From positions 42,153-106,152 of IMG/VR virus record IMGVR_UViG_3300043777_000086: a stretch of 64,000 bases of DNA, one strand, 5' to 3'. Origin of the DNA: a virus. Shown piece after piece: positions 4,896 to 64,000 of the stretch (position 1 is the stretch's first letter; the number at the start of each line of letters is the position of its first letter). The notes beneath the pieces are model-generated. The model was not told the DNA's origin. It did not search any database and saw only the letters and a list, made by a program, of their open reading frames with translations. The position numbers and the translations under genes were made by a program.

Positions 4896-5555
4896 ATGAC
4901 CCCCATCCGTCGCGCCCTCGCTGCTATCTCCCGCTTTGTCCGAGTTCGGATCTTTAGGCGTCCGGAACCTCCGATCGTAGAGCGGCCACCTGACGGCGCG
5001 ATCGTATTCCCAGAGCTTCCCTCAAGTAGAGCGCTTGAAGAGTATGGATCCGGAACTCAGGCGGTGGCTATCAGCACACTTCCTCGGCCGCCGATATCTG
5101 ACCTCATTCCGCTTAGGCCGGCGTCCTGTCTCTATGAGGTCACCTTCCAGCCACGGCCGTACTGGCTATTCGACTCGATCCACCTAACGGCTATCTGCGG
5201 GTCCGCGCTGCGGGTGATCGCGTTCCATGAGGACGTTTCGCACTGCATCTTCCAGGTGACCGTCACTCCGATCCCGATGCAGCTCGACCACGCGATGCTA
5301 TTGGGGTTGCATCGCGCGCGGGCAGAGGCGCCAGTCACGCTACGGATTGAGAGCCGGGTTACGTTTGAGGTCTACGAACTCCGCGCCACCTACCTGCGAC
5401 CGGACTTCCGGCGCGAGCAGGCTTCGGACGGGACGATGATGCTGGTGTTCAACGACCCGTTCTACAAACCGATAGCCGAATCCGAATTCGGATTACTTCC
5501 CTCAGCGCCGCACCACCGCAAGATCTACGGACCCGGCGCGGACGTGGGGTACTAG
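4896..5555 (+). CDS. hypothetical protein (opposite-strand insert)
   Basis: 219-aa ORF with own promoter candidate, convergent with late genes. Confidence 0.65.
   Translation: MTPIRRALAAISRFVRVRIFRRPEPPIVERPPDGAIVFPELPSSRALEEYGSGTQAVAISTLPRPPISDLIPLRPASCLYEVTFQPRPYWLFDSIHLTAICGSALRVIAFHEDVSHCIFQVTVTPIPMQLDHAMLLGLHRARAEAPVTLRIESRVTFEVYELRATYLRPDFRREQASDGTMMLVFNDPFYKPIAESEFGLLPSAPHHRKIYGPGADVGY
4938..4951. repeat. 14-bp dispersed palindrome copy GTCCGAGTTCGGAT
   Basis: exact match to RTCCGANNTCGGAY. Confidence 0.9.
5480..5493. repeat. 14-bp dispersed palindrome copy ATCCGAATTCGGAT
   Basis: exact match to RTCCGANNTCGGAY. Confidence 0.85.
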
Positions 5556-41260: not shown

Positions 41261-42244
41261 TTAGAACAGGGTTCCCGCCGTGCAGGTGAGCTTTGCGCAA
41301 GAGCGCGGATTGGGAAGCAAGAACTGGGTACCGACCAGGTACTGGCCGGCATAGTCGATCGAGTTAGCAGCTTCCTTGAAGCCTGTGAATCCCCACTGGA
41401 ATAACGGCACCGTCGAGAAATACCACTCGACGTACTCGGTATTCAGAAGCCACATAGCGCCCGTCGTTCCGGTGGGCGCGTACCGGTCCATCACAACCTC
41501 AGCCGCGTTGAACCGGAATGCCTGGAAGCCCATCTTCCCGACGTCAGTGTTGGTCATGTCCGGATACCGCTGCAATGGTTGCAGTGAGTTCCAGAACAGG
41601 TTCCATCCGTTCGGGGTGGCAGTGATCAGATCCACGTGATCAGCACCCCAGGCGCTCTGCGTGTATCCATTCTGCACGGCCGCCAAATTGAAGCTGGTGA
41701 GATTCGCCACATACGAGTTGAGGCCGCCGACAGAGCCAACCGCCATCACATCCGAACGCGTGATCCCGCCGATGGTCGGGTACAGATTGCCGTCATCGAC
41801 CCAGGCGTTTAACCCTTCGAGGTTAAGGCTCCTGCCTGGATCCTGTGAGGAGAGAAATAGCGCCGTTCCCAGCAACTCAGCCATGCGCATTCCGGCGTTC
41901 TTGAACTTCAGCTCGATCTGGCTGAAGATTGCCGGGTCGCCGTTATTCAGCATGGCGTCGAAGCCGTAAAGGGTCATATTGACCGCGTAGAGCTTCATGT
42001 TGAGCTGGAGCGCAGTCTCGGTCACGACGTAGTCGATGTCGAAAGCCTGGCCGCGGCCGACCGCATCACCCCACAGCTTCCCAACGGTCAGGACGCGCTG
42101 GATCTGGTTGCCGCCCTCAAAACGCTCCATCCGGCGCGTGTGTAGGCGCGTGAAGGTGGGGCTGTTCTTGTAGACAACCTCGGTCGCCTTCGGCGCGATA
42201 TAGACCGTCGTGAAAGCGTTTACGTCGACGATTGGAAATGCCAT
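41261..42244 (-). CDS. major capsid protein
   Basis: 327 aa after scaffold; GGNQI, EGL...DDG..Y..IGGITRS, NPR motifs. Confidence 0.85.
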   Translation of the reverse strand: MAFPIVDVNAFTTVYIAPKATEVVYKNSPTFTRLHTRRMERFEGGNQIQRVLTVGKLWGDAVGRGQAFDIDYVVTETALQLNMKLYAVNMTLYGFDAMLNNGDPAIFSQIELKFKNAGMRMAELLGTALFLSSQDPGRSLNLEGLNAWVDDGNLYPTIGGITRSDVMAVGSVGGLNSYVANLTSFNLAAVQNGYTQSAWGADHVDLITATPNGWNLFWNSLQPLQRYPDMTNTDVGKMGFQAFRFNAAEVVMDRYAPTGTTGAMWLLNTEYVEWYFSTVPLFQWGFTGFKEAANSIDYAGQYLVGTQFLLPNPRSCAKLTCTAGTLF

Positions 42245-47253: not shown

Positions 47254-49491
47254 CTACAGCATATCGTACTCTGGCGTCTGCGCGGAAACTTCACTCTTCT
47301 TTTCCAGTCCAGGCAGGTCCACTTTGGTAATGATCCCCTCCTTGACGCCGTTACGTTTAGCCTTTAGGAGGATTGAGCTGCACTGCTCGCACCGGATATT
47401 CGTCCCTCGCGGCAATTCATCATCGTCGAACTCGTAGCCGCAGCGAAGGCACGTGATATGGTATTCCTTCTGGGCGTCTTCGTTGGATGTACCGCGGATC
47501 TTGCTGTATCCTAGATTCTCGTCGTGGTCGGTTTCACGAGCGCAATAGAGAGCTATAAGCGTTGCAATCAGCTCATCGTCATGGCTGCCCTTAGCTGCCT
47601 CAGCCTTCTTGTCGCTTTCATCATCGTCCTTCTGGAAGCGCTTCATCTCCTCGACGAGGTTGTCGGATTTTGGAATAAATAGCCCGGCCCTTAGCCTTCG
47701 AACTCCATTGCCCCATAGTTTGGGCTTCGAGTTACCCTGGGTGATCCAGTGCCACTTAGAACTCATAATATTGCTAGAGTCGAGGTGCTTCCAGCGATGA
47801 AGACTGGGGTAGTTGTACCGAATACGAACTTCGTCTCCGCAGGTCTGATAGGTGTTGTACTCGATATTCGCCTGAGCTGTGTTGTACCAGTACCCCAAGT
47901 GGACGACCGGCAGCGCCAGGTCGTAGTGATTGATCGTATTCGATCTCCACGTTGCTACCTGAACATCGGAGTTTGCGCCCCTGCCGACGCGGATTACGAC
48001 GATCACGGAGTAGTCGTGCTTGCCCCCTAGGCCCTCGGCAACATCAACACCCAAGTGATACACGTGACCATCCTGAGGAAATTCCCATAGCCTCAATTGA
48101 TGATCGTCAAATCGATGATCGGCGTCACACCACTCCTGCCAGCATTGGGATTTATAAACCTGCCCACTTTCATTACGAACGAACTTTTTTACGCCGTGAA
48201 ATTTTCCGTTCTTATCGAGATGCCCAATGGCGATAGGATCTCTAACCTGCTTAACTGCGAAGTCTATAACATCCTCCGGGAAAACCGGATCTCCGGATAT
48301 CTGAAATGCCTCCAGATCCGTCATGCAGACTTCTTGGCGCAATTCCTTTACGGACTCAATCCCCTTGCGTTCTGCTGTCTCCCTGCGCCACTCCATAAAC
48401 CTTAACTGCTGGTCGTCAAGAACGTAAGGGCGTAGAGTTCCGGTCTTGCATTGCAGACATTTTTCATCTACAACCCGAACCCCTAGATGCACCGACTCGA
48501 ACCACCTCTGACAGTCTGGGTTTGAGCACCGAGTCCACTTGTCCTGTACTAACTCCCGTAGATTAGCCTCTGGCTTCTTTGGCTTCCATCCCAGAGATAC
48601 CGTCCTCCTTCGACCATGCTCCATGAATCCCGGAATGAAAATTGTCCGGTACTCGGCATCATCGCCGGCCTCCTTATTAGTGCGCCATAGGTCCTCGTAA
48701 TATGTACCCGCCCCCTTGGCGGTAGACTCGATAATCGCGAACGTCATCGGGGACTGGTCTGCTAGTGCGTTACCAAGATCTCCGTCGATCGCCTGACGCG
48801 CGGTCTTTTCCATAAAATCACTTAACTCAGATACGTGCGCACACGTGACACGGATACCCTGCCCGATACCGCTATACTGCTGCGCCATCTGAATTTCAAT
48901 TCGGGACTTAAGACCGGGATTGGTGCGGCGAAAATCCGGGTTAGGATTTTCAAAGAGCAGTCCGCCGTCGTACTTTCGATTGGCGCACATGGGCTTTAAC
49001 CACCACGGCATCTGGTCGTAGATGTGCAGCATGATCGAGAACAGGTATTCGGATCGATTTAGATCGGGACCAACCACGAGCGCGTTAACGTTCGGGAAGA
49101 ACATCGTACGCCAGGCCACAAGAGCCTCGCACAGCGTTGAGATTCCTTGCTGGCGAGCCTTCAATATCAGTAATTTCTGCGCCATGCCCTGATCCCTAAT
49201 CGACCACATGATTTCGAGGATCAACTCCTGCGATTCCCAGAGCGTGAAGAACTGGTCGCCGGTTTCCTTGTTGGTGATCTTGAAGTAATTCTTGCAGGCG
49301 TAAACGAAATCGTCCTGGCAGTGATCCAGCTCTTTATAGATCAGATCCCAGTCAGATCTTGATAGCGCGTCCGGATCTCCTTGCGGCCCACGGGGGGTGC
49401 TTATGACGAACTTAGGCTGGTCGAGGTACTCTACTAGTTCGTCTATTCCGACGTCGCGCTTCCAGCGGGAAGCTGTGGATTTGATGAGCAC
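47254..49491 (-). CDS. terL: terminase large subunit
   Basis: ILKARQQGIST Walker A, HVSE Walker B, ESTAKG, GVDVAEG..DYS, HDD. Confidence 0.95.
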   Translation of the reverse strand: MLIKSTASRWKRDVGIDELVEYLDQPKFVISTPRGPQGDPDALSRSDWDLIYKELDHCQDDFVYACKNYFKITNKETGDQFFTLWESQELILEIMWSIRDQGMAQKLLILKARQQGISTLCEALVAWRTMFFPNVNALVVGPDLNRSEYLFSIMLHIYDQMPWWLKPMCANRKYDGGLLFENPNPDFRRTNPGLKSRIEIQMAQQYSGIGQGIRVTCAHVSELSDFMEKTARQAIDGDLGNALADQSPMTFAIIESTAKGAGTYYEDLWRTNKEAGDDAEYRTIFIPGFMEHGRRRTVSLGWKPKKPEANLRELVQDKWTRCSNPDCQRWFESVHLGVRVVDEKCLQCKTGTLRPYVLDDQQLRFMEWRRETAERKGIESVKELRQEVCMTDLEAFQISGDPVFPEDVIDFAVKQVRDPIAIGHLDKNGKFHGVKKFVRNESGQVYKSQCWQEWCDADHRFDDHQLRLWEFPQDGHVYHLGVDVAEGLGGKHDYSVIVVIRVGRGANSDVQVATWRSNTINHYDLALPVVHLGYWYNTAQANIEYNTYQTCGDEVRIRYNYPSLHRWKHLDSSNIMSSKWHWITQGNSKPKLWGNGVRRLRAGLFIPKSDNLVEEMKRFQKDDDESDKKAEAAKGSHDDELIATLIALYCARETDHDENLGYSKIRGTSNEDAQKEYHITCLRCGYEFDDDELPRGTNIRCEQCSSILLKAKRNGVKEGIITKVDLPGLEKKSEVSAQTPEYDML

Positions 49492-50749: not shown

Positions 50750-51372
50750 TAGTTGGCCTCGATGTTGAACCCGTCGTAGTTGTCGTGTGCCTTATCGGCC
50801 CTGCTCATCCGAATCTGGATCTCGGCGTCGCGCCGCGAGGACCCCTCGGACATCAGATGCCTGATCTCGGTTTCCTCCTCGATCGTAAGGTCGGAACCCG
50901 GCGGTCGTCCGTTGGCTCCGAAGGCATTCTGCGTGTAGGACCGAACGGTAGTTTCGAGTTCGATCAACGCAGAAGTCTGGGCCTTAGCGGCCTTGATTAG
51001 CCCCGACCCCATTGCCTTTAGGAACTCCCCGTGGGCCGACAACGCCTCAATAGATTTACCCTGTGCCGCGTGGCGGGCGCCATCGGAATCGAACTGTGCG
51101 GATAGCGCCCTGGATTGAGAATCCAGGCTTTGTTTGAGTGTCTCGATATGCGAGGAGAGGACTTTCGTGCAGTCGGATATGCTATCCAGACATTTGATCT
51201 GTTCGGAGTTAGAAGTCCGAACTCGGACAAAATCGCGATGAAGTTTAGATAACTGCCCGTAGAGGAGCAATCCTATAACAAGGACCGCCGCGATGAGCAG
51301 AAACAGGAGGACGCCTATGATGGTTGCTTCGATCAACGATCTATTGTTGTTGACATTTAATCCCAAAGTCAA
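50749..51372 (-). CDS. N-terminal TM coiled-coil protein
   Basis: long TM then coiled coil; start uncertain. Confidence 0.7.
   Translation of the reverse strand: MTLGLNVNNNRSLIEATIIGVLLFLLIAAVLVIGLLLYGQLSKLHRDFVRVRTSNSEQIKCLDSISDCTKVLSSHIETLKQSLDSQSRALSAQFDSDGARHAAQGKSIEALSAHGEFLKAMGSGLIKAAKAQTSALIELETTVRSYTQNAFGANGRPPGSDLTIEEETEIRHLMSEGSSRRDAEIQIRMSRADKAHDNYDGFNIEAN
51215..51228. repeat. 14-bp dispersed palindrome copy GTCCGAACTCGGAC
   Basis: exact match. Confidence 0.9.
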
Positions 51373-51386
51373 GTAGCCTGAACGAC

Positions 51387-51602
51387 ATGGATCAGATAGT
51401 CTCCGTGCCTGAAGTGCGGAAGCGTGGCCAGCCGAGGATCCCTGAAGAGAAAAAGAGGGTCCCTCTTCATGTGCGGGTCATGCCCTCAACGCGTGAGTTC
51501 CTTAAACGCGCGGGGGCTAAGAACAACGGGCGGGCGGTTGATATGGTGGTGTCGGCTTACCGGAGACTAGCGGCTAAGATGAAGGCGCTGGAGAAGAACT
51601 GA
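51387..51602 (+). CDS. small RHH-like DNA-binding protein
   Basis: KRGQP...KRVPLHVRV...T.E.L......GRA.D; TTGACA-18-TAGCCT upstream (51350-51379). Confidence 0.65.
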   Translation: MDQIVSVPEVRKRGQPRIPEEKKRVPLHVRVMPSTREFLKRAGAKNNGRAVDMVVSAYRRLAAKMKALEKN

Positions 51603-51710: not shown

Positions 51711-52283
51711 TCACACCTTACTTAGCTCCCCCTCCGCCCCAATCTCCGCTCTTAACTTCTGCTCCGCGATCTTCTGCCGGCCGCGTTCGGTGAGCACAAA
51801 CCGTCCGTACTCCGCGAGTGTCTTGAACCCCTTCGATAACCTGAAGAATATCGCCGCCCGGTCCAACTCCATCGCGGTCCCGAATTCCCCCTGCTGCAAG
51901 TCCGAGTTCAGAAACCTGTCAGCGAGCTTCAGGTTTGCCATCCTCTGGTTCTCTCTCCCGGCCGTCAACTTCACCATGTTAGTGGGTATACCTAGATAGC
52001 GGTAGAGTCTGGCATCGACCAGCAGCTTCATCACGGACGGAGTGAAACGCTTCTCGTTGATGAGGTCCGGTATCTTGTGGCGCTTAACCTCCGGGCTCAC
52101 GTTGACCTTGGCGGTCGGATCTAGGCTCCTTGCGCAGTGCGGGCACTTCTTGGAATTCTTGTGCTTGCGCCATTCGTGACCGCAGTGCGGGCATATCGAG
52201 GGCTTCTTCAGTTTGCTGGCTGGGTTGCGTGTCTGCTTCAGGCGTCCCAATACAACAACTCCGGTATTTTTATGTTTGGCCAA
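51711..52283 (-). CDS. zinc-ribbon protein with possible AP2-like segment
   Basis: CPHCGH.W...CPHC; F.TA...DRAA. Confidence 0.6.
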   Translation of the reverse strand: MAKHKNTGVVVLGRLKQTRNPASKLKKPSICPHCGHEWRKHKNSKKCPHCARSLDPTAKVNVSPEVKRHKIPDLINEKRFTPSVMKLLVDARLYRYLGIPTNMVKLTAGRENQRMANLKLADRFLNSDLQQGEFGTAMELDRAAIFFRLSKGFKTLAEYGRFVLTERGRQKIAEQKLRAEIGAEGELSKV

Positions 52284-52284
52284 G

Positions 52285-53055
52285 TTACTCCTCCTTGGCC
52301 TTGATCCGGATCTCTAGAATCCGTTCCTTGTCGGACTCGACCATATCGATCGAGATGTACTCGAAATCCTTGCCGACCTTCTTGCCGATCACGCGCACCT
52401 TGGCGTTCTTTCGCGGAAGCAGCATCGCCACATGCCTAGCGTTAGAGAATATCGCTGCGATCTCCGGCCAACTGATCTTCCCTGACTGAACCCATTCCTT
52501 GAGTGTGCGGACTCGCTCCCCGACCGGATCGCTATCCTCGACGACTTCCTCGTCCACTGACGGTGGGGACGGGGGTTTCCGTTTGTGCTTCTTGACCTCG
52601 ACATCTTTCTCCTCGCCCTTGCGGACCTCGGCCACAAGACCAGGGCTGACACCGCACAGCGTTGCCAGCGCGCGATCGCTGCGGCGCCGGAGGGTCTTGT
52701 CGGCTAGCGCTCTCTCTACTGCGTTGCGCTTATCGGCCGGGGTGAGCCTGAGTCCATGCTGGCAGTTTCGTTCTAGGCTCATCTCAAGAGCCTTCGTCAG
52801 GGCCTCTTCTGGCTCACACTCGTGGATCTCTCCCTCGATCGATTTAATGCTGCGCTGCTGCGCGGCGAGGAACCGGTGCGCCCCATCCGCCAAAATCAGC
52901 CGGTCGTCGCCATCACGGAAGAGGTCGATCGCAGAGAACTTGACGCCCTCCTTCATGGCCGCGGCGTATTCATCAATCACTTTCGATGAGATCTTCAGGC
53001 GAATCTGGATCTCCGGCAACATCACGATGTCTTTCAATGCGATCTGTTCGGGCAC
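52285..53055 (-). CDS. ParB/Srx-like (StrR-type) DNA-binding protein
   Basis: QIR, LADGAHR ParB box, N..HGL.L...DKR.AV, HTH SDRALATLCGVS..LV..VR. Confidence 0.85.
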   Translation of the reverse strand: MPEQIALKDIVMLPEIQIRLKISSKVIDEYAAAMKEGVKFSAIDLFRDGDDRLILADGAHRFLAAQQRSIKSIEGEIHECEPEEALTKALEMSLERNCQHGLRLTPADKRNAVERALADKTLRRRSDRALATLCGVSPGLVAEVRKGEEKDVEVKKHKRKPPSPPSVDEEVVEDSDPVGERVRTLKEWVQSGKISWPEIAAIFSNARHVAMLLPRKNAKVRVIGKKVGKDFEYISIDMVESDKERILEIRIKAKEE

Positions 53056-53065
53056 TTAGTCTCCT

Positions 53066-54832
53066 TTACTTTTTAAGGAACAACAGCGCGGAAGCTCTAG
53101 CGGTAGAGGTATCGGGGTACTCTACAAACCCAAGCGTACGCAGACGGCCTATAGCGTTCTTGAACCCCTTGCTGAGCACGTTAGAATATCCCGCGAGTTC
53201 ACCCAGGCGCACGCGGTTGATCGAGTGCGGGTAGGCTGAGATCAATTCCCTGATGATCTTCTCGTGCGCCCCTCCGAGCATGCTCATGATCCGTTCTTGG
53301 TGTTCTCGTTCGGATCCGGGAACATCGGGATAGTGAGCCGCGGAGCGTCCGGACTCGGTTAGTGTGACCGTGTCCGAGTCCGGATAATCAATCAAACCAG
53401 CCGAGCGAAGGGATCCAGACGCATTCTTAAATCCCTTACTTAGTAGGTTTGTGTACCCGGCTCTGAACCCCACCTGCACACGAGGAGCGCGATCCACTCC
53501 CAGTACTTCGAGTTCAGCGATAGCGTCTAGGATGGACTGCTCCGTGGAGGATATTTTTTCGTTTCCGTTCCCGCTCGACAATGGGGTGCTTATCTTTTGG
53601 AATCCCCCTCCTCTGGATTCATACACGCCCTCTCTGGCGATATGGATCGCAGCGGGAGCGGAAGAAACCTCACGGACAATCTTATCTAGGTCGGGTATCG
53701 TAGGTAGCTCTATCTCGCAAAGCTCACGATGAAGAGACCCGCTCTTGGAGGACATCTCCCCTACGGTGACAATCACACGCTCCAGGATCTTGCGATAATC
53801 CACATGGAGCTTACCAACACTCTTTGCGAGTTCTTTCCTGATAGCTATGGCGCCGGCTTCGCGCGCCTTTTCGATTGCGGCCGGATCGGATTGTGGCTGG
53901 GCTTTATGGGCCTGCCTCAATTCCTGCTCCAGTCGCTGCACTTCCTTTTTTAGATCGGCTTCGGTTTGCGCCTTCTGCTCTACTTCCTGTGGTAGATCGG
54001 CCAGCTTGGCTAATATCGCCTTGACCTTTTCACGGGGTGGTGTCGGCGGAGCGCTTCGCTCTCCGGACTTGGGATGAGTCGTCTGAACTTCACCGACTTT
54101 GATCTTGATAACCGCATCGGAAATCGCTGGACCAAACGCGAAGAACTGTCCGTCCTTTAGTGTGCGTAGCTCGAACTCCCGCTCACGCGACCTGAACCCC
54201 AGCTCCCGGCAGGCTCTAGCATTGTCGATATCGAGCGCCGTCCTGCCGATCAATTTGTTATTGCAGTCGCATGCGCTCTTGTGGAGATGTGAGATTCTCT
54301 GGGCGGCAAGGACTCCGCAGAATCCCCGCTTACGTCCGCGCGTCATAATGTCGACCACAGCCGAAAGGCTCTCGGCTTCTCCGTACCCCTTCTCGGGTGC
54401 GAACATAGCGGCCTCATCGATCACCACTAGTACGGGATGCCAAAGGGACCGCGGAGCCGACATCATAGATTCAAGGAATAGCTTCACGAATCTAATCCGG
54501 TCATGAGCTTTTAATTCGTAGATTCCCACGATCGCGGAAGTTCCAAGCTCTAGGATCCTGCGGGCGAGCAATTCAGAACTACGAACATCCGCCGGGCAGT
54601 CTCCGCCCTGGCGTCCGGCAAGTACATAATCAAATTTTTCACGAAGGGTATAGAATTCATCTTCAGGGTCGATCACGATCTGTTGGACGTGCCCGTAAGT
54701 CTGTTCGAGGATCCTGCGGAGTGTGTAGCTCTTTCCGGCCCCGGAGTTGGCTTGCACCAGCAGACGGGTGGTTACTAGACGCTTCACGTCCATATTCACG
54801 TCGCGACCATGCTCGTCTAATCCAAGAATCAT
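53066..54832 (-). CDS. HerA/FtsK-family (DUF87) ATPase with two C-terminal winged-helix-like repeats
   Basis: ANSGAGKS, IDPEDEF, IDEA, GRKRG, QR; 2x R......AGY.N.LSKGFKNA.G.LR..G...YPD. Confidence 0.88.
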   Translation of the reverse strand: MILGLDEHGRDVNMDVKRLVTTRLLVQANSGAGKSYTLRRILEQTYGHVQQIVIDPEDEFYTLREKFDYVLAGRQGGDCPADVRSSELLARRILELGTSAIVGIYELKAHDRIRFVKLFLESMMSAPRSLWHPVLVVIDEAAMFAPEKGYGEAESLSAVVDIMTRGRKRGFCGVLAAQRISHLHKSACDCNNKLIGRTALDIDNARACRELGFRSREREFELRTLKDGQFFAFGPAISDAVIKIKVGEVQTTHPKSGERSAPPTPPREKVKAILAKLADLPQEVEQKAQTEADLKKEVQRLEQELRQAHKAQPQSDPAAIEKAREAGAIAIRKELAKSVGKLHVDYRKILERVIVTVGEMSSKSGSLHRELCEIELPTIPDLDKIVREVSSAPAAIHIAREGVYESRGGGFQKISTPLSSGNGNEKISSTEQSILDAIAELEVLGVDRAPRVQVGFRAGYTNLLSKGFKNASGSLRSAGLIDYPDSDTVTLTESGRSAAHYPDVPGSEREHQERIMSMLGGAHEKIIRELISAYPHSINRVRLGELAGYSNVLSKGFKNAIGRLRTLGFVEYPDTSTARASALLFLKK

Positions 54833-55317
54833 TCCGCAATCGCCTTACGCACCAACGCATCCGAACCGGCAAGAGACCCGTGCGGTTTCGACAGGTAAAG
54901 CCTCAGGAGCTTCCCGCGCCGGTGCGATGTCCTCGGTCCGCACTTATCTTCGGTGGTGTGCTCCCACGGGAACTTGCCGCACGGGCACCGATTCGCTAGA
55001 GTTCCGTTTTCGAGCTTACGCCTGATCGAATCTAACTCCACTAAGATAGCCGCGTTCCTGTCTCCGACCCTGGCGGACGATCTAAGCGCCGCCTTGCGTG
55101 TCCGGTTGGCCTCTACAAACTGATCCCCGGTTTCGGGTTTTCCGAATACCAGCTTGACCTCCGCAACCGAATCCGGGTCGATCAGGGTCTTGTCGGCTTT
55201 GATGCAGACTAAGCAGGTAGCCTCCGACTCTACCTGCTCAGCCTCATCGCTGATCAGCCGTCCGCACGCGGTGATCAGTCCAGCTTCAATGTGGACCCTC
55301 GATCCAATCTTCAACAT
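54829..55317 (-). CDS. Cys-rich hypothetical protein
   Basis: H...ACG...TC..C; CPCGK...H...C. Confidence 0.65.
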   Translation of the reverse strand: MLKIGSRVHIEAGLITACGRLISDEAEQVESEATCLVCIKADKTLIDPDSVAEVKLVFGKPETGDQFVEANRTRKAALRSSARVGDRNAAILVELDSIRRKLENGTLANRCPCGKFPWEHTTEDKCGPRTSHRRGKLLRLYLSKPHGSLAGSDALVRKAIAE

Positions 55318-55331
55318 TTCTTGTCCACATC

Positions 55332-55360
55332 ATTATCGAGGGTGCGGGGAGGATTGTCAA
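55332..55360 (-). promoter_or_regulatory. sigma70-type promoter for HerA-ParB operon
   Basis: TTGACA-17 nt-GATAAT. Confidence 0.75.
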
Positions 55361-63754: not shown

Positions 63755-64000
63755 ATGAAGACTATCGTTGTGAAATCGCAAGCTGAATTCGACGCGCTAC
63801 CCGCGTCTTTTGATGAATACACAGTGATCGAGATTCGCTCGCCAGAATTTGACTGGATCACGGTGAGATCCATTCCATCATCTAGCAGCGTCGTGGCGCG
63901 GGAATCTAGCAGCGTCGTGGCGCGGGAATCTAGCAGCGTCGAGGCGCGGGAATCTAGCAGCGTCGTGGCGCGGGAATCTAGCCGCGTCGTGGCGCGGGAA
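63755..64000 (+). CDS. octapeptide-repeat (beta-solenoid-like) protein, truncated
   Basis: AGGGAG RBS; MKTIVVKSQAEFD... then SSSVVARE repeats. Confidence 0.75.
   Translation, partial: MKTIVVKSQAEFDALPASFDEYTVIEIRSPEFDWITVRSIPSSSSVVARESSSVVARESSSVEARESSSVVARESSRVVARE
63881..64000 (+). repeat. 24-bp tandem repeat, 5 copies up to window edge
   Basis: TCTAGCAGCGTCGTGGCGCGGGAA with single-base variants in copies 3 and 5. Confidence 0.95.

Follow-up and report, generated by a model that had tools for sequence, protein, structure and literature searches.

A phage ATPase of the HerA/FtsK fold with tandem winged helices appears to be an accessory insertion in a conserved ParB-like gene trio

Motors of the FtsK-HerA superfamily are known from several systems that differ in partner and in layout. 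HerA acts in the end-resection helicase HerA-NurA and in the defence systems Sir2-HerA, DUF4297-HerA and MADS MAD7-MAD8. FtsK/SpoIIIE and Streptomyces plasmid TraB carry a C-terminal winged helix-turn-helix (wHTH) domain that could direct the motor to DNA, as the FtsK gamma domain reads FtsK-orienting polar sequences (KOPS) and the TraB domain reads clt repeats. The minimal FtsK-HerA packaging NTPases (STIV2 B204, the Haloarcula virus PH1 ATPase, the corticovirus NTPase and poxvirus A32-like proteins) are the sole packaging motors of membrane-containing, portal-less viruses. Within the ParB family, KorB of plasmid RK2 and Noc bind dispersed palindromes without a partition role, and some phage ParB homologues, working independently of ParA, assist other DNA enzymes as activators of thymine dioxygenases (PMC13229309) or are DNases themselves (PMC5512222). 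Here we analyse a 64,000-nt stretch of phage DNA, hereafter the window, in which a gene for a HerA/FtsK-fold ATPase is followed by a gene for a ParB-like protein in a four-gene unit. The window is the final part (positions 42,153 to 106,152) of the 106,152-bp IMG/VR record IMGVR_UViG_3300043777_000086, which CheckV rates as complete. A preliminary description had proposed that the two proteins form one module; the evidence presented below instead makes it somewhat more probable than not that the unit is composite, with a separately acquired accessory ATPase placed within a conserved ParB-like trio, and makes a dedicated motor-plus-clamp machine improbable.

The unit lies on the minus strand, immediately upstream of packaging and morphogenesis genes, and comprises a Cys-rich open reading frame (ORF; 162 amino acids, 55317..54829), the ATPase gene (588 amino acids, 54832..53066), the ParB-like gene (256 amino acids, 53055..52285) and a gene for a Zn-ribbon protein (190 amino acids, 52283..51711). 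A strong sigma-70-like promoter, TTGACA-17-GATAAT (55360..55332, minus strand), was read directly and was also the top site in a 9.5-kb scan of 49-58.5 kb, with 11 of 12 consensus matches. The Cys-rich and ATPase genes overlap by 4 nt (ATGA), and gaps of 10 nt and 1 nt, respectively, follow the ATPase and ParB-like genes. A pattern scan placed a terminator-like hairpin at 51468..51452 (minus strand), within the 338-bp gap ahead of the next minus-strand gene. Given the promoter, the tight spacing and this hairpin, it is plausible that the four genes are one transcription unit. The promoter and the four genes are thus as previously described. Additionally, the earlier remark that no ParA or NurA was in view holds for the complete 106,152-bp genome, in which profiles for ParA (PF13614) and NurA (PF09376) found no match; the same profiles matched in 14 of 14 and in 7 control genomes, respectively.

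If the ATPase and the ParB-like protein worked as one module, then conserved linkage of their genes across phages would be expected. Of the 11 window proteins compared, 9 have a counterpart in the nearest relative, the 35.5-kb record L163, in the same order, including the Cys-rich (49% identity), ParB-like (59%) and Zn-ribbon (53%) proteins, the last again encoded after the ParB-like gene. In the window the unit is followed on the minus strand by p207, p284, p150 (probably the small terminase), the large terminase gene TerL (49491..47254; phrog_5989, E = 2.6e-15) and the portal gene, and L163 keeps homologues of p207, p284 and p150 in order as well as TerL (73%) and portal (76%). However, no ATPase was found in L163, either at the syntenic site or elsewhere in the record. 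There, the stop codon of the Cys-rich gene overlaps the start of the ParB-like gene (GTGA), a direct stop/start coupling, whereas here the same stop overlaps the ATPase start (ATGA) and the ParB-like gene has its own Shine-Dalgarno sequence after the ATPase. The ATPase gene also has the lowest G+C content at third codon positions (GC3) in the unit, 0.60 versus 0.69-0.75 for its three partners.

The wider ATPase family points in the same direction. Its closest homologues (in loci L030, L041, L003 and L106) have in common with the window none of 10 other genes tested, and comparison of ten neighbouring window proteins with the ORFs of 160 ATPase loci (BLASTP and phmmer) returned one weak ParB match and nothing else. 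An iterated ParB_N profile, seeded with the ParB-like protein's own family, detected a ParB_N-like gene within ~8 kb in only 18 of the 160 loci; the other 142 had none. At the positions directly flanking the ATPase, 4 such genes were observed versus ~2 expected from the loci's own ParB density, which is no excess of adjacency, and the ParB_N proteins adjoining the ATPase in other loci had no wHTH module. Clustering of the six genes on either side of the ATPase by BLAST gave no neighbour cluster present in more than 20 loci and no recurrent nuclease neighbour; the nearest large neighbours include DNA methylases, DUF5131 and ParB_N proteins, terminases, integrases, PolA, uracil-DNA glycosylase and SNF2 helicases. 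Therefore, from the ATPase-less trio of L163, the clean junctions, the low GC3, the unrelated phages that carry the homologues and the neighbour survey, we infer that the ATPase gene is an accessory that is both self-contained and mobile, and that the ParB-like gene is part of a separate trio of greater age. The conserved linkage implied by the one-module proposal was not found.

Several observations weigh against this interpretation. The L163 record is 36% complete, and an ATPase could lie elsewhere in that phage. ParB_N genes occur one gene upstream of the ATPase in L033, L095 and L106 and two genes upstream in L047 and L075, which are independent lineages, and a ParB gene directly precedes a sister ATPase on the contig encoding the protein P0191 (see below). 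The survey baseline was the loci's own density, not the genome-wide phage rate, and a modest true enrichment of ParB_N could be present. Furthermore, the single promoter and the translational coupling suggest that the four products are made together and may cooperate. Conserved recognition-helix residues in the winged helices of the ATPase (N470, N559, L564 and R565) could also indicate a common non-DNA ligand. Since a ParB_N gene is found immediately upstream of the ATPase in L033, L095, L106 and P0191, occasional cooperation between the two proteins may occur. A predicted complex of the ATPase and the ParB-like protein scored 0.00, which is no verdict and weighs neither way.

The ATPase itself has the RecA-like core of the FtsK-HerA superfamily. 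As the preliminary description had proposed, it is a HerA/DUF87 protein (Pfam DUF87, E = 5e-10), and the structure predictions for which that description had called gave a HerA/FtsK fold for the ATPase (AlphaFold2, AF2; mean predicted local distance difference test, pLDDT, 87.7) and a ParB/Srx (sulfiredoxin) fold for the ParB-like protein (68.8). HerA 4d2i ranked first in Foldseek (E = 1e-11), and a 40-homologue profile retrieved solved HerA proteins over the segment from Walker B to QRPS. In the corresponding 40-sequence alignment (A1), Walker A (S30-G31-x-G33-K34-S35), Walker B (D139-E140), R167-K168-R169 and Q178-R179 are invariant, the last pair aligning to the QRPS of HerA. Walker A and B, the Q-R segment and the RecA-like fold place the protein in the FtsK-HerA superfamily. 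The model has five parts, namely a compact RecA-like domain (residues 1-250), a linker rich in Pro, a pair of long helices (268-371), a disordered segment (372-424) and two winged helices (~429-500 and 508-585). From the motifs and the HerA alignment, the ATPase domain was assigned to residues 1-260 (54053..54832, minus strand); the helical, coiled-coil region at 268-371 (53720..54031, minus strand) and the disordered linker after it were delimited from the predicted secondary structure and pLDDT. The coiled-coil region is variable in A1, and a Pfam phiKZ_IP match to residues 236-357, in the linker and coiled coil, was treated as compositional.

Relative to HerA, which gives the best sequence and fold matches and shares the RecA-like core, Walker A and B and the QR(P)S segment, the phage motor is reduced to ~260 residues. 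It lacks the N-terminal HAS barrel (the P-loop begins at residue 29, and the model gives just two short strands before it) and adds the coiled coil and two winged helices. Moreover, no NurA, Sir2 or other nuclease partner was detected in the genome or recurred in the family neighbourhoods. Unlike FtsK and TraB, the protein has no membrane anchor, its tandem MarR-like wHTH domains sit on a long helical arm, and no polar skewed motif was found. The motor's nearest match in size and fold is with the minimal viral packaging NTPases (TMt 0.71 for STIV2 B204 and 0.76 for the Haloarcula virus PH1 ATPase), but this phage possesses both a terminase and a portal, and its ATPase has a predicted DNA-binding tail. 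It is not the replicative helicase, because the phage has its own DnaB ~65 kb away, in the left arm, where the other replication genes (a DUF1376 protein and a superfamily 2 (SF2) helicase) also lie.

The two related wHTH-like repeats that had been noted at the C-terminus were confirmed. Winged helix 1 spans residues 426-505 (53318..53557, minus strand; repeat hidden Markov model (HMM), E = 8e-30) and winged helix 2 residues 508-586 (53075..53311, minus strand; E = 1e-27), and in BLASTP the two match each other with E = 9e-17 and 61% identity over 38 amino acids. Profile comparison identifies them as winged helices (MarR, E = 2.9e-6; Pfam Mrr_N, MarR_2 and HTH_45), and FtsK_gamma is absent among the Pfam matches listed for the ATPase and the wHTH pair. 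Exactly two winged helices are present in 135 of 161 homologues.

Proteins of this type are numerous. A search with the ATPase scored 8000 candidates and recovered 2698 proteins at E = 1e-3 or better, the top 120 being 44-66% identical to it and most of them full length, and the wHTH module alone matched 10,460 cluster representatives (3,774 at E <= 1e-30). In the Atlas, the family's clusters are 68-83% viral, and their only names are 'hypothetical' and 'DUF87'. Its loci are in phages and prophages of Proteobacteria, Acidobacteriota, Planctomycetota, Chloroflexota, Patescibacteria, Gemmatimonadota and DPANN archaea. Only three records matched in a collection of 50,697 phage genomes, and therefore isolates rarely carry the gene. 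Prophage copies are nevertheless present in the cultured strains Nitrobacter vulgaris DSM 10236, Nannocystis exedens DSM 71, Bradyrhizobium sp. C9 and Rhodanobacter sp. B04, and such lysogens make experiments on the ATPase feasible. A literature search combining DUF87/HerA-like proteins with winged helices, ParB or phage found no paper on the family. Within the FtsK-HerA superfamily the ATPase represents a new and uncharacterised variant in architecture, and the family, with thousands of 50%-identity clusters, is among the larger phage protein families without an assigned function. Its modelled layout, a minimal packaging-type motor with a long arm and two putative DNA-reading heads, predicts that tailed phages already equipped with a terminase also encode a targeted DNA translocase.

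One candidate fusion was rejected. P0191 (782 amino acids) combines ParB_N, HTH_ParB, an ATPase and tandem wHTH domains, but its residues 240-290 are spurious, Arg/Gly-rich sequence and the Walker A segment is missing; it is also known from a single 4.1-kb JGI contig, and its ~600-amino-acid relatives have no ParB. From its sequence, P0191 is probably the product of a frameshift that joined a canonical ParB gene to the gene for an ATPase of a sister family. That sister family (~600 amino acids) has hundreds of members, mostly with no Pfam match.

The ParB-like protein had been called ParB/StrR-like, and this was correct (phrog_1033, E = 4.7e-10), even though Pfam ParB_N gives no score on it. 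Only five close homologues were found, one of which, at 62% identity, bears a precomputed ParB_N match, and metagenome scans for the family returned no matches. The AF2 model, of moderate pLDDT (68.8), has a ParB/Srx domain (residues 1-100), a helical helix-turn-helix (HTH; 106-146), a disordered acidic linker (151-198) and a five-stranded C-terminal domain. Fold comparison (VIA) matched sulfiredoxin (Z 13.0), KorB (Z 11.4, 27% identity), pNOB8 ParB (Z 10.7) and the KorB DNA-binding domain (Z 4.4), and Foldseek matched Noc, ParB and KorB (~5e-7) over ~145 residues spanning the N-domain and the HTH. The loop G58-A-H-R61-F-L-A64, conserved in alignment A2, assigns the protein, together with this fold, to the ParB/Srx superfamily.

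Canonical ParB proteins bind CTP through a GERRxRA motif in box II and an ENLQR motif in box III. Here, box II reads G-A-H-R, such that the Glu and the first Arg of GERR are replaced, and box III is partly kept (E95-R-N97...H100). An HTH does follow the N-domain as in canonical clamps, but the canonical box II motif is lost and no ParA partner was detected; with G-A-H-R in place of GERR, CTP-clamp behaviour cannot be assumed. The protein resembles KorB in its ParB/Srx N-domain, adjacent HTH, acidic linker and beta-rich C-terminal domain, and the genome carries 21 dispersed palindromes as candidate sites. It differs from KorB and Noc in that its box II is of the sulfiredoxin or phage-nuclease type, Pfam ParB_N is silent and no KorA-like partner was identified. 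In contrast to the setting of the ParB activators of thymine dioxygenases, this genome has no dioxygenase or N6/N4-type methylase match. In record L165, a 34%-identical ParB-like homologue overlaps the start of an SF2 helicase gene (ResIII/Helicase_C; L165:9998-12195).

The other two members of the trio are less distinctive. The Cys-rich ORF has no Pfam, PHROG, NCBIfam or PADLOC match. The Zn-ribbon protein, assigned from weak Pfam zinc-ribbon matches (all under the cut-off) and its L163 homologue, has a CPHC...CPHC arrangement followed by a helical C-terminal domain. Its residues ~140-175 contain a conserved FRL(S/A)KGFK..LAEYG.FVLT..GR..IAE, which recalls the LSKGFKN..G.LR..G...LTESGR of the ATPase winged helices; the resemblance between its C-terminal LSKGFK...LTERGR and that motif is not significant (HMM E = 0.06, BLASTP E = 0.2).

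The dispersed palindromes invoked in the preliminary description do exist. The 14-bp family TCCGA-NN-TCGGA has 21 copies in the genome versus 0.32 expected (p ~7e-31), of which 10 (0.04 expected) are in the window, at 4939, 5481, 11415, 27301, 35803, 46621, 51216, 59201, 61064 and 63727, and 11 in the left arm. Approximately eight copies are at gene 5' ends, some of them between promoter-like -10 elements and Shine-Dalgarno sequences, and the remainder are inside coding sequence. None is in the operon or its promoter, the nearest being at 51216. Of the AC/GT-centred copies, 8 of 12 are co-oriented with transcription, and neither KOPS-like polarity nor a strand-skewed motif was detected. The palindromes do not depend on the ATPase, because an ATPase-less relative (G001) has its own version, GTCCA-N4-TGGAC, with 8 copies (p ~3e-14); the 14-bp frame is retained there, and a single base change is compensated. 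Similarly, the L165 record (G003) has 6 copies of GTCAA-N3-TTGAC, and among 115 ATPase loci only 4 have any palindrome of this kind at p < 1e-8. The palindromes thus seem to track lineages with the ParB-like family and not the ATPase, although three genomes that share many genes make this a lead and not proof. The KorB-like protein is a likelier palindrome binder than the ATPase, and the palindrome could be a DNA operator or a hairpin with a 5-bp stem. This ParB-palindrome link is the more promising lead, and separating the ATPase from the trio sharpens the question of whether a KorB-like phage ParB reads the 14-bp palindromes of this lineage.

The explanation favoured here, somewhat more likely than not, has two parts. 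In this lineage, the small and large terminase genes are closely preceded by a conserved trio (Cys-rich, ParB/Srx-HTH and Zn-ribbon). Its ParB-like member, with the modelled KorB layout, would most likely bind palindromic DNA as a dimer and may serve as a regulator or DNA-marking factor without ParA. The ATPase gene appears to have been inserted between the first two trio genes. Its product is a compact FtsK/HerA motor with full catalytic motifs, on which a predicted ~100-residue helical arm and flexible linker would tether the two MarR-like winged helices. By analogy with HerA, FtsK and TraB, it may form a ring on double-stranded DNA, with the winged helices capturing DNA or a DNA-bound factor and ATP hydrolysis driving translocation or remodelling of phage DNA.

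Other explanations of the ATPase were weighed against this composite origin. As a phage-borne conflict gene, it would be a mobile accessory that acts in defence against competing phages or in counter-defence against the host. Its cassette-like insertion and patchy spread over unrelated phages and prophages of many phyla would fit, as would its frequent neighbours (DNA methylases, ParB-methylase-type proteins, DUF5131, SNF2 and integrases), which are typical of anti-restriction or moron regions. HerA ATPases drive several recently solved defence complexes, and the top PADLOC match spanning the entire ATPase domain is to mad8, which supplies the ATPase in the MAD7-MAD8 ATPase-nuclease module of MADS (PMC13662399). 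However, that match is weak (E = 2e-12) and concerns a generic ATPase domain, no effector domain (nuclease, Sir2 or other) is fused or consistently adjacent, and the locus heads the late/packaging region and not an obvious moron island. A role in conflict is judged unlikely, although it is the strongest of the alternatives.

It is rather improbable that the ATPase is an initiator binding the origin or pac site, or a packaging helper, with winged helices reading repeats such as a 24-nt terminal array and a motor that aids replication initiation, concatemer processing or packaging. Plasmid Rep initiators read iterons with tandem winged helices, and an array of at least 25 copies is present at the genome ends. 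The fold resembles minimal packaging NTPases most closely, the putative small terminase gene and the large one follow four genes downstream, TerL recurs among the large neighbours closest to the ATPase gene, and phrog_2666, annotated as a terminase large subunit, matches the ATPase (E = 2e-10). Yet TerL and the portal are normal in this phage, which also encodes a DnaB of its own together with a DUF1376 protein, the relative L163 apparently packages without the ATPase, and across the family the gene keeps no fixed place with respect to terminase or replication genes.

The original proposal, in which a site-guided translocase serves segregation, compaction or counter-defence by loading, moving or stripping a ParB clamp at the palindromes, now appears quite improbable. 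It draws on the common promoter and tight coupling of adjacent genes, the genome-wide presence of a ParB without ParA and a HerA-like ATPase without NurA, the recurrence of ParB_N neighbours, some immediately adjacent, the real palindrome network, and the distant L165 homologue that directly precedes a different motor. Against it stand the ATPase-less trio of L163, the many ATPase loci with no ParB_N-like gene nearby, the palindrome families of ATPase-less relatives, and the absence of palindromes from the operon and of polarity among them. Its broadest form, that these ATPases are widespread undescribed phage DNA motors, paired here with a KorB-like, ParA-independent ParB on the palindrome network and, for example, loading, moving or clearing ParB before packaging, would be a new kind of ParB-motor pairing if true, but is very doubtful.

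Additional features of the genome were recorded. The 24-nt unit ATCTAGCAGCGTCGTGGCGCGGGA forms a tandem array of at least 25 copies at window positions 63880-64000, continuing at genome positions 1-490 (L166:1-490), with variation almost wholly at three positions. The record's 57-bp 'direct terminal repeat' falls inside this array, which leaves both the real number of copies and the ends of the genome uncertain. Four of six frames are open throughout the array, and one ORF extends from it to genome position 996; the array could be coding, or an iteron- or centromere-like site. A 71-amino-acid basic ORF with no family match lies on the plus strand (window 51387-51602), between the operon hairpin and the next late gene. 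The TerL of L163 (L163:12965-15709) has 914 amino acids versus 745 here (window 47254-49491), owing to an extra segment of ~170 amino acids between the stretches aligned with residues 620 and 636, which could be an intein or homing-endonuclease insertion. The left arm also encodes a GIY-YIG/NUMOD3 homing-endonuclease-like protein (genome 5427-6260) and, on the minus strand, a TnpB/Cas12f-like protein with OrfB_IS605 and TNB domains (genome 20399-21571; L167:399-1571).

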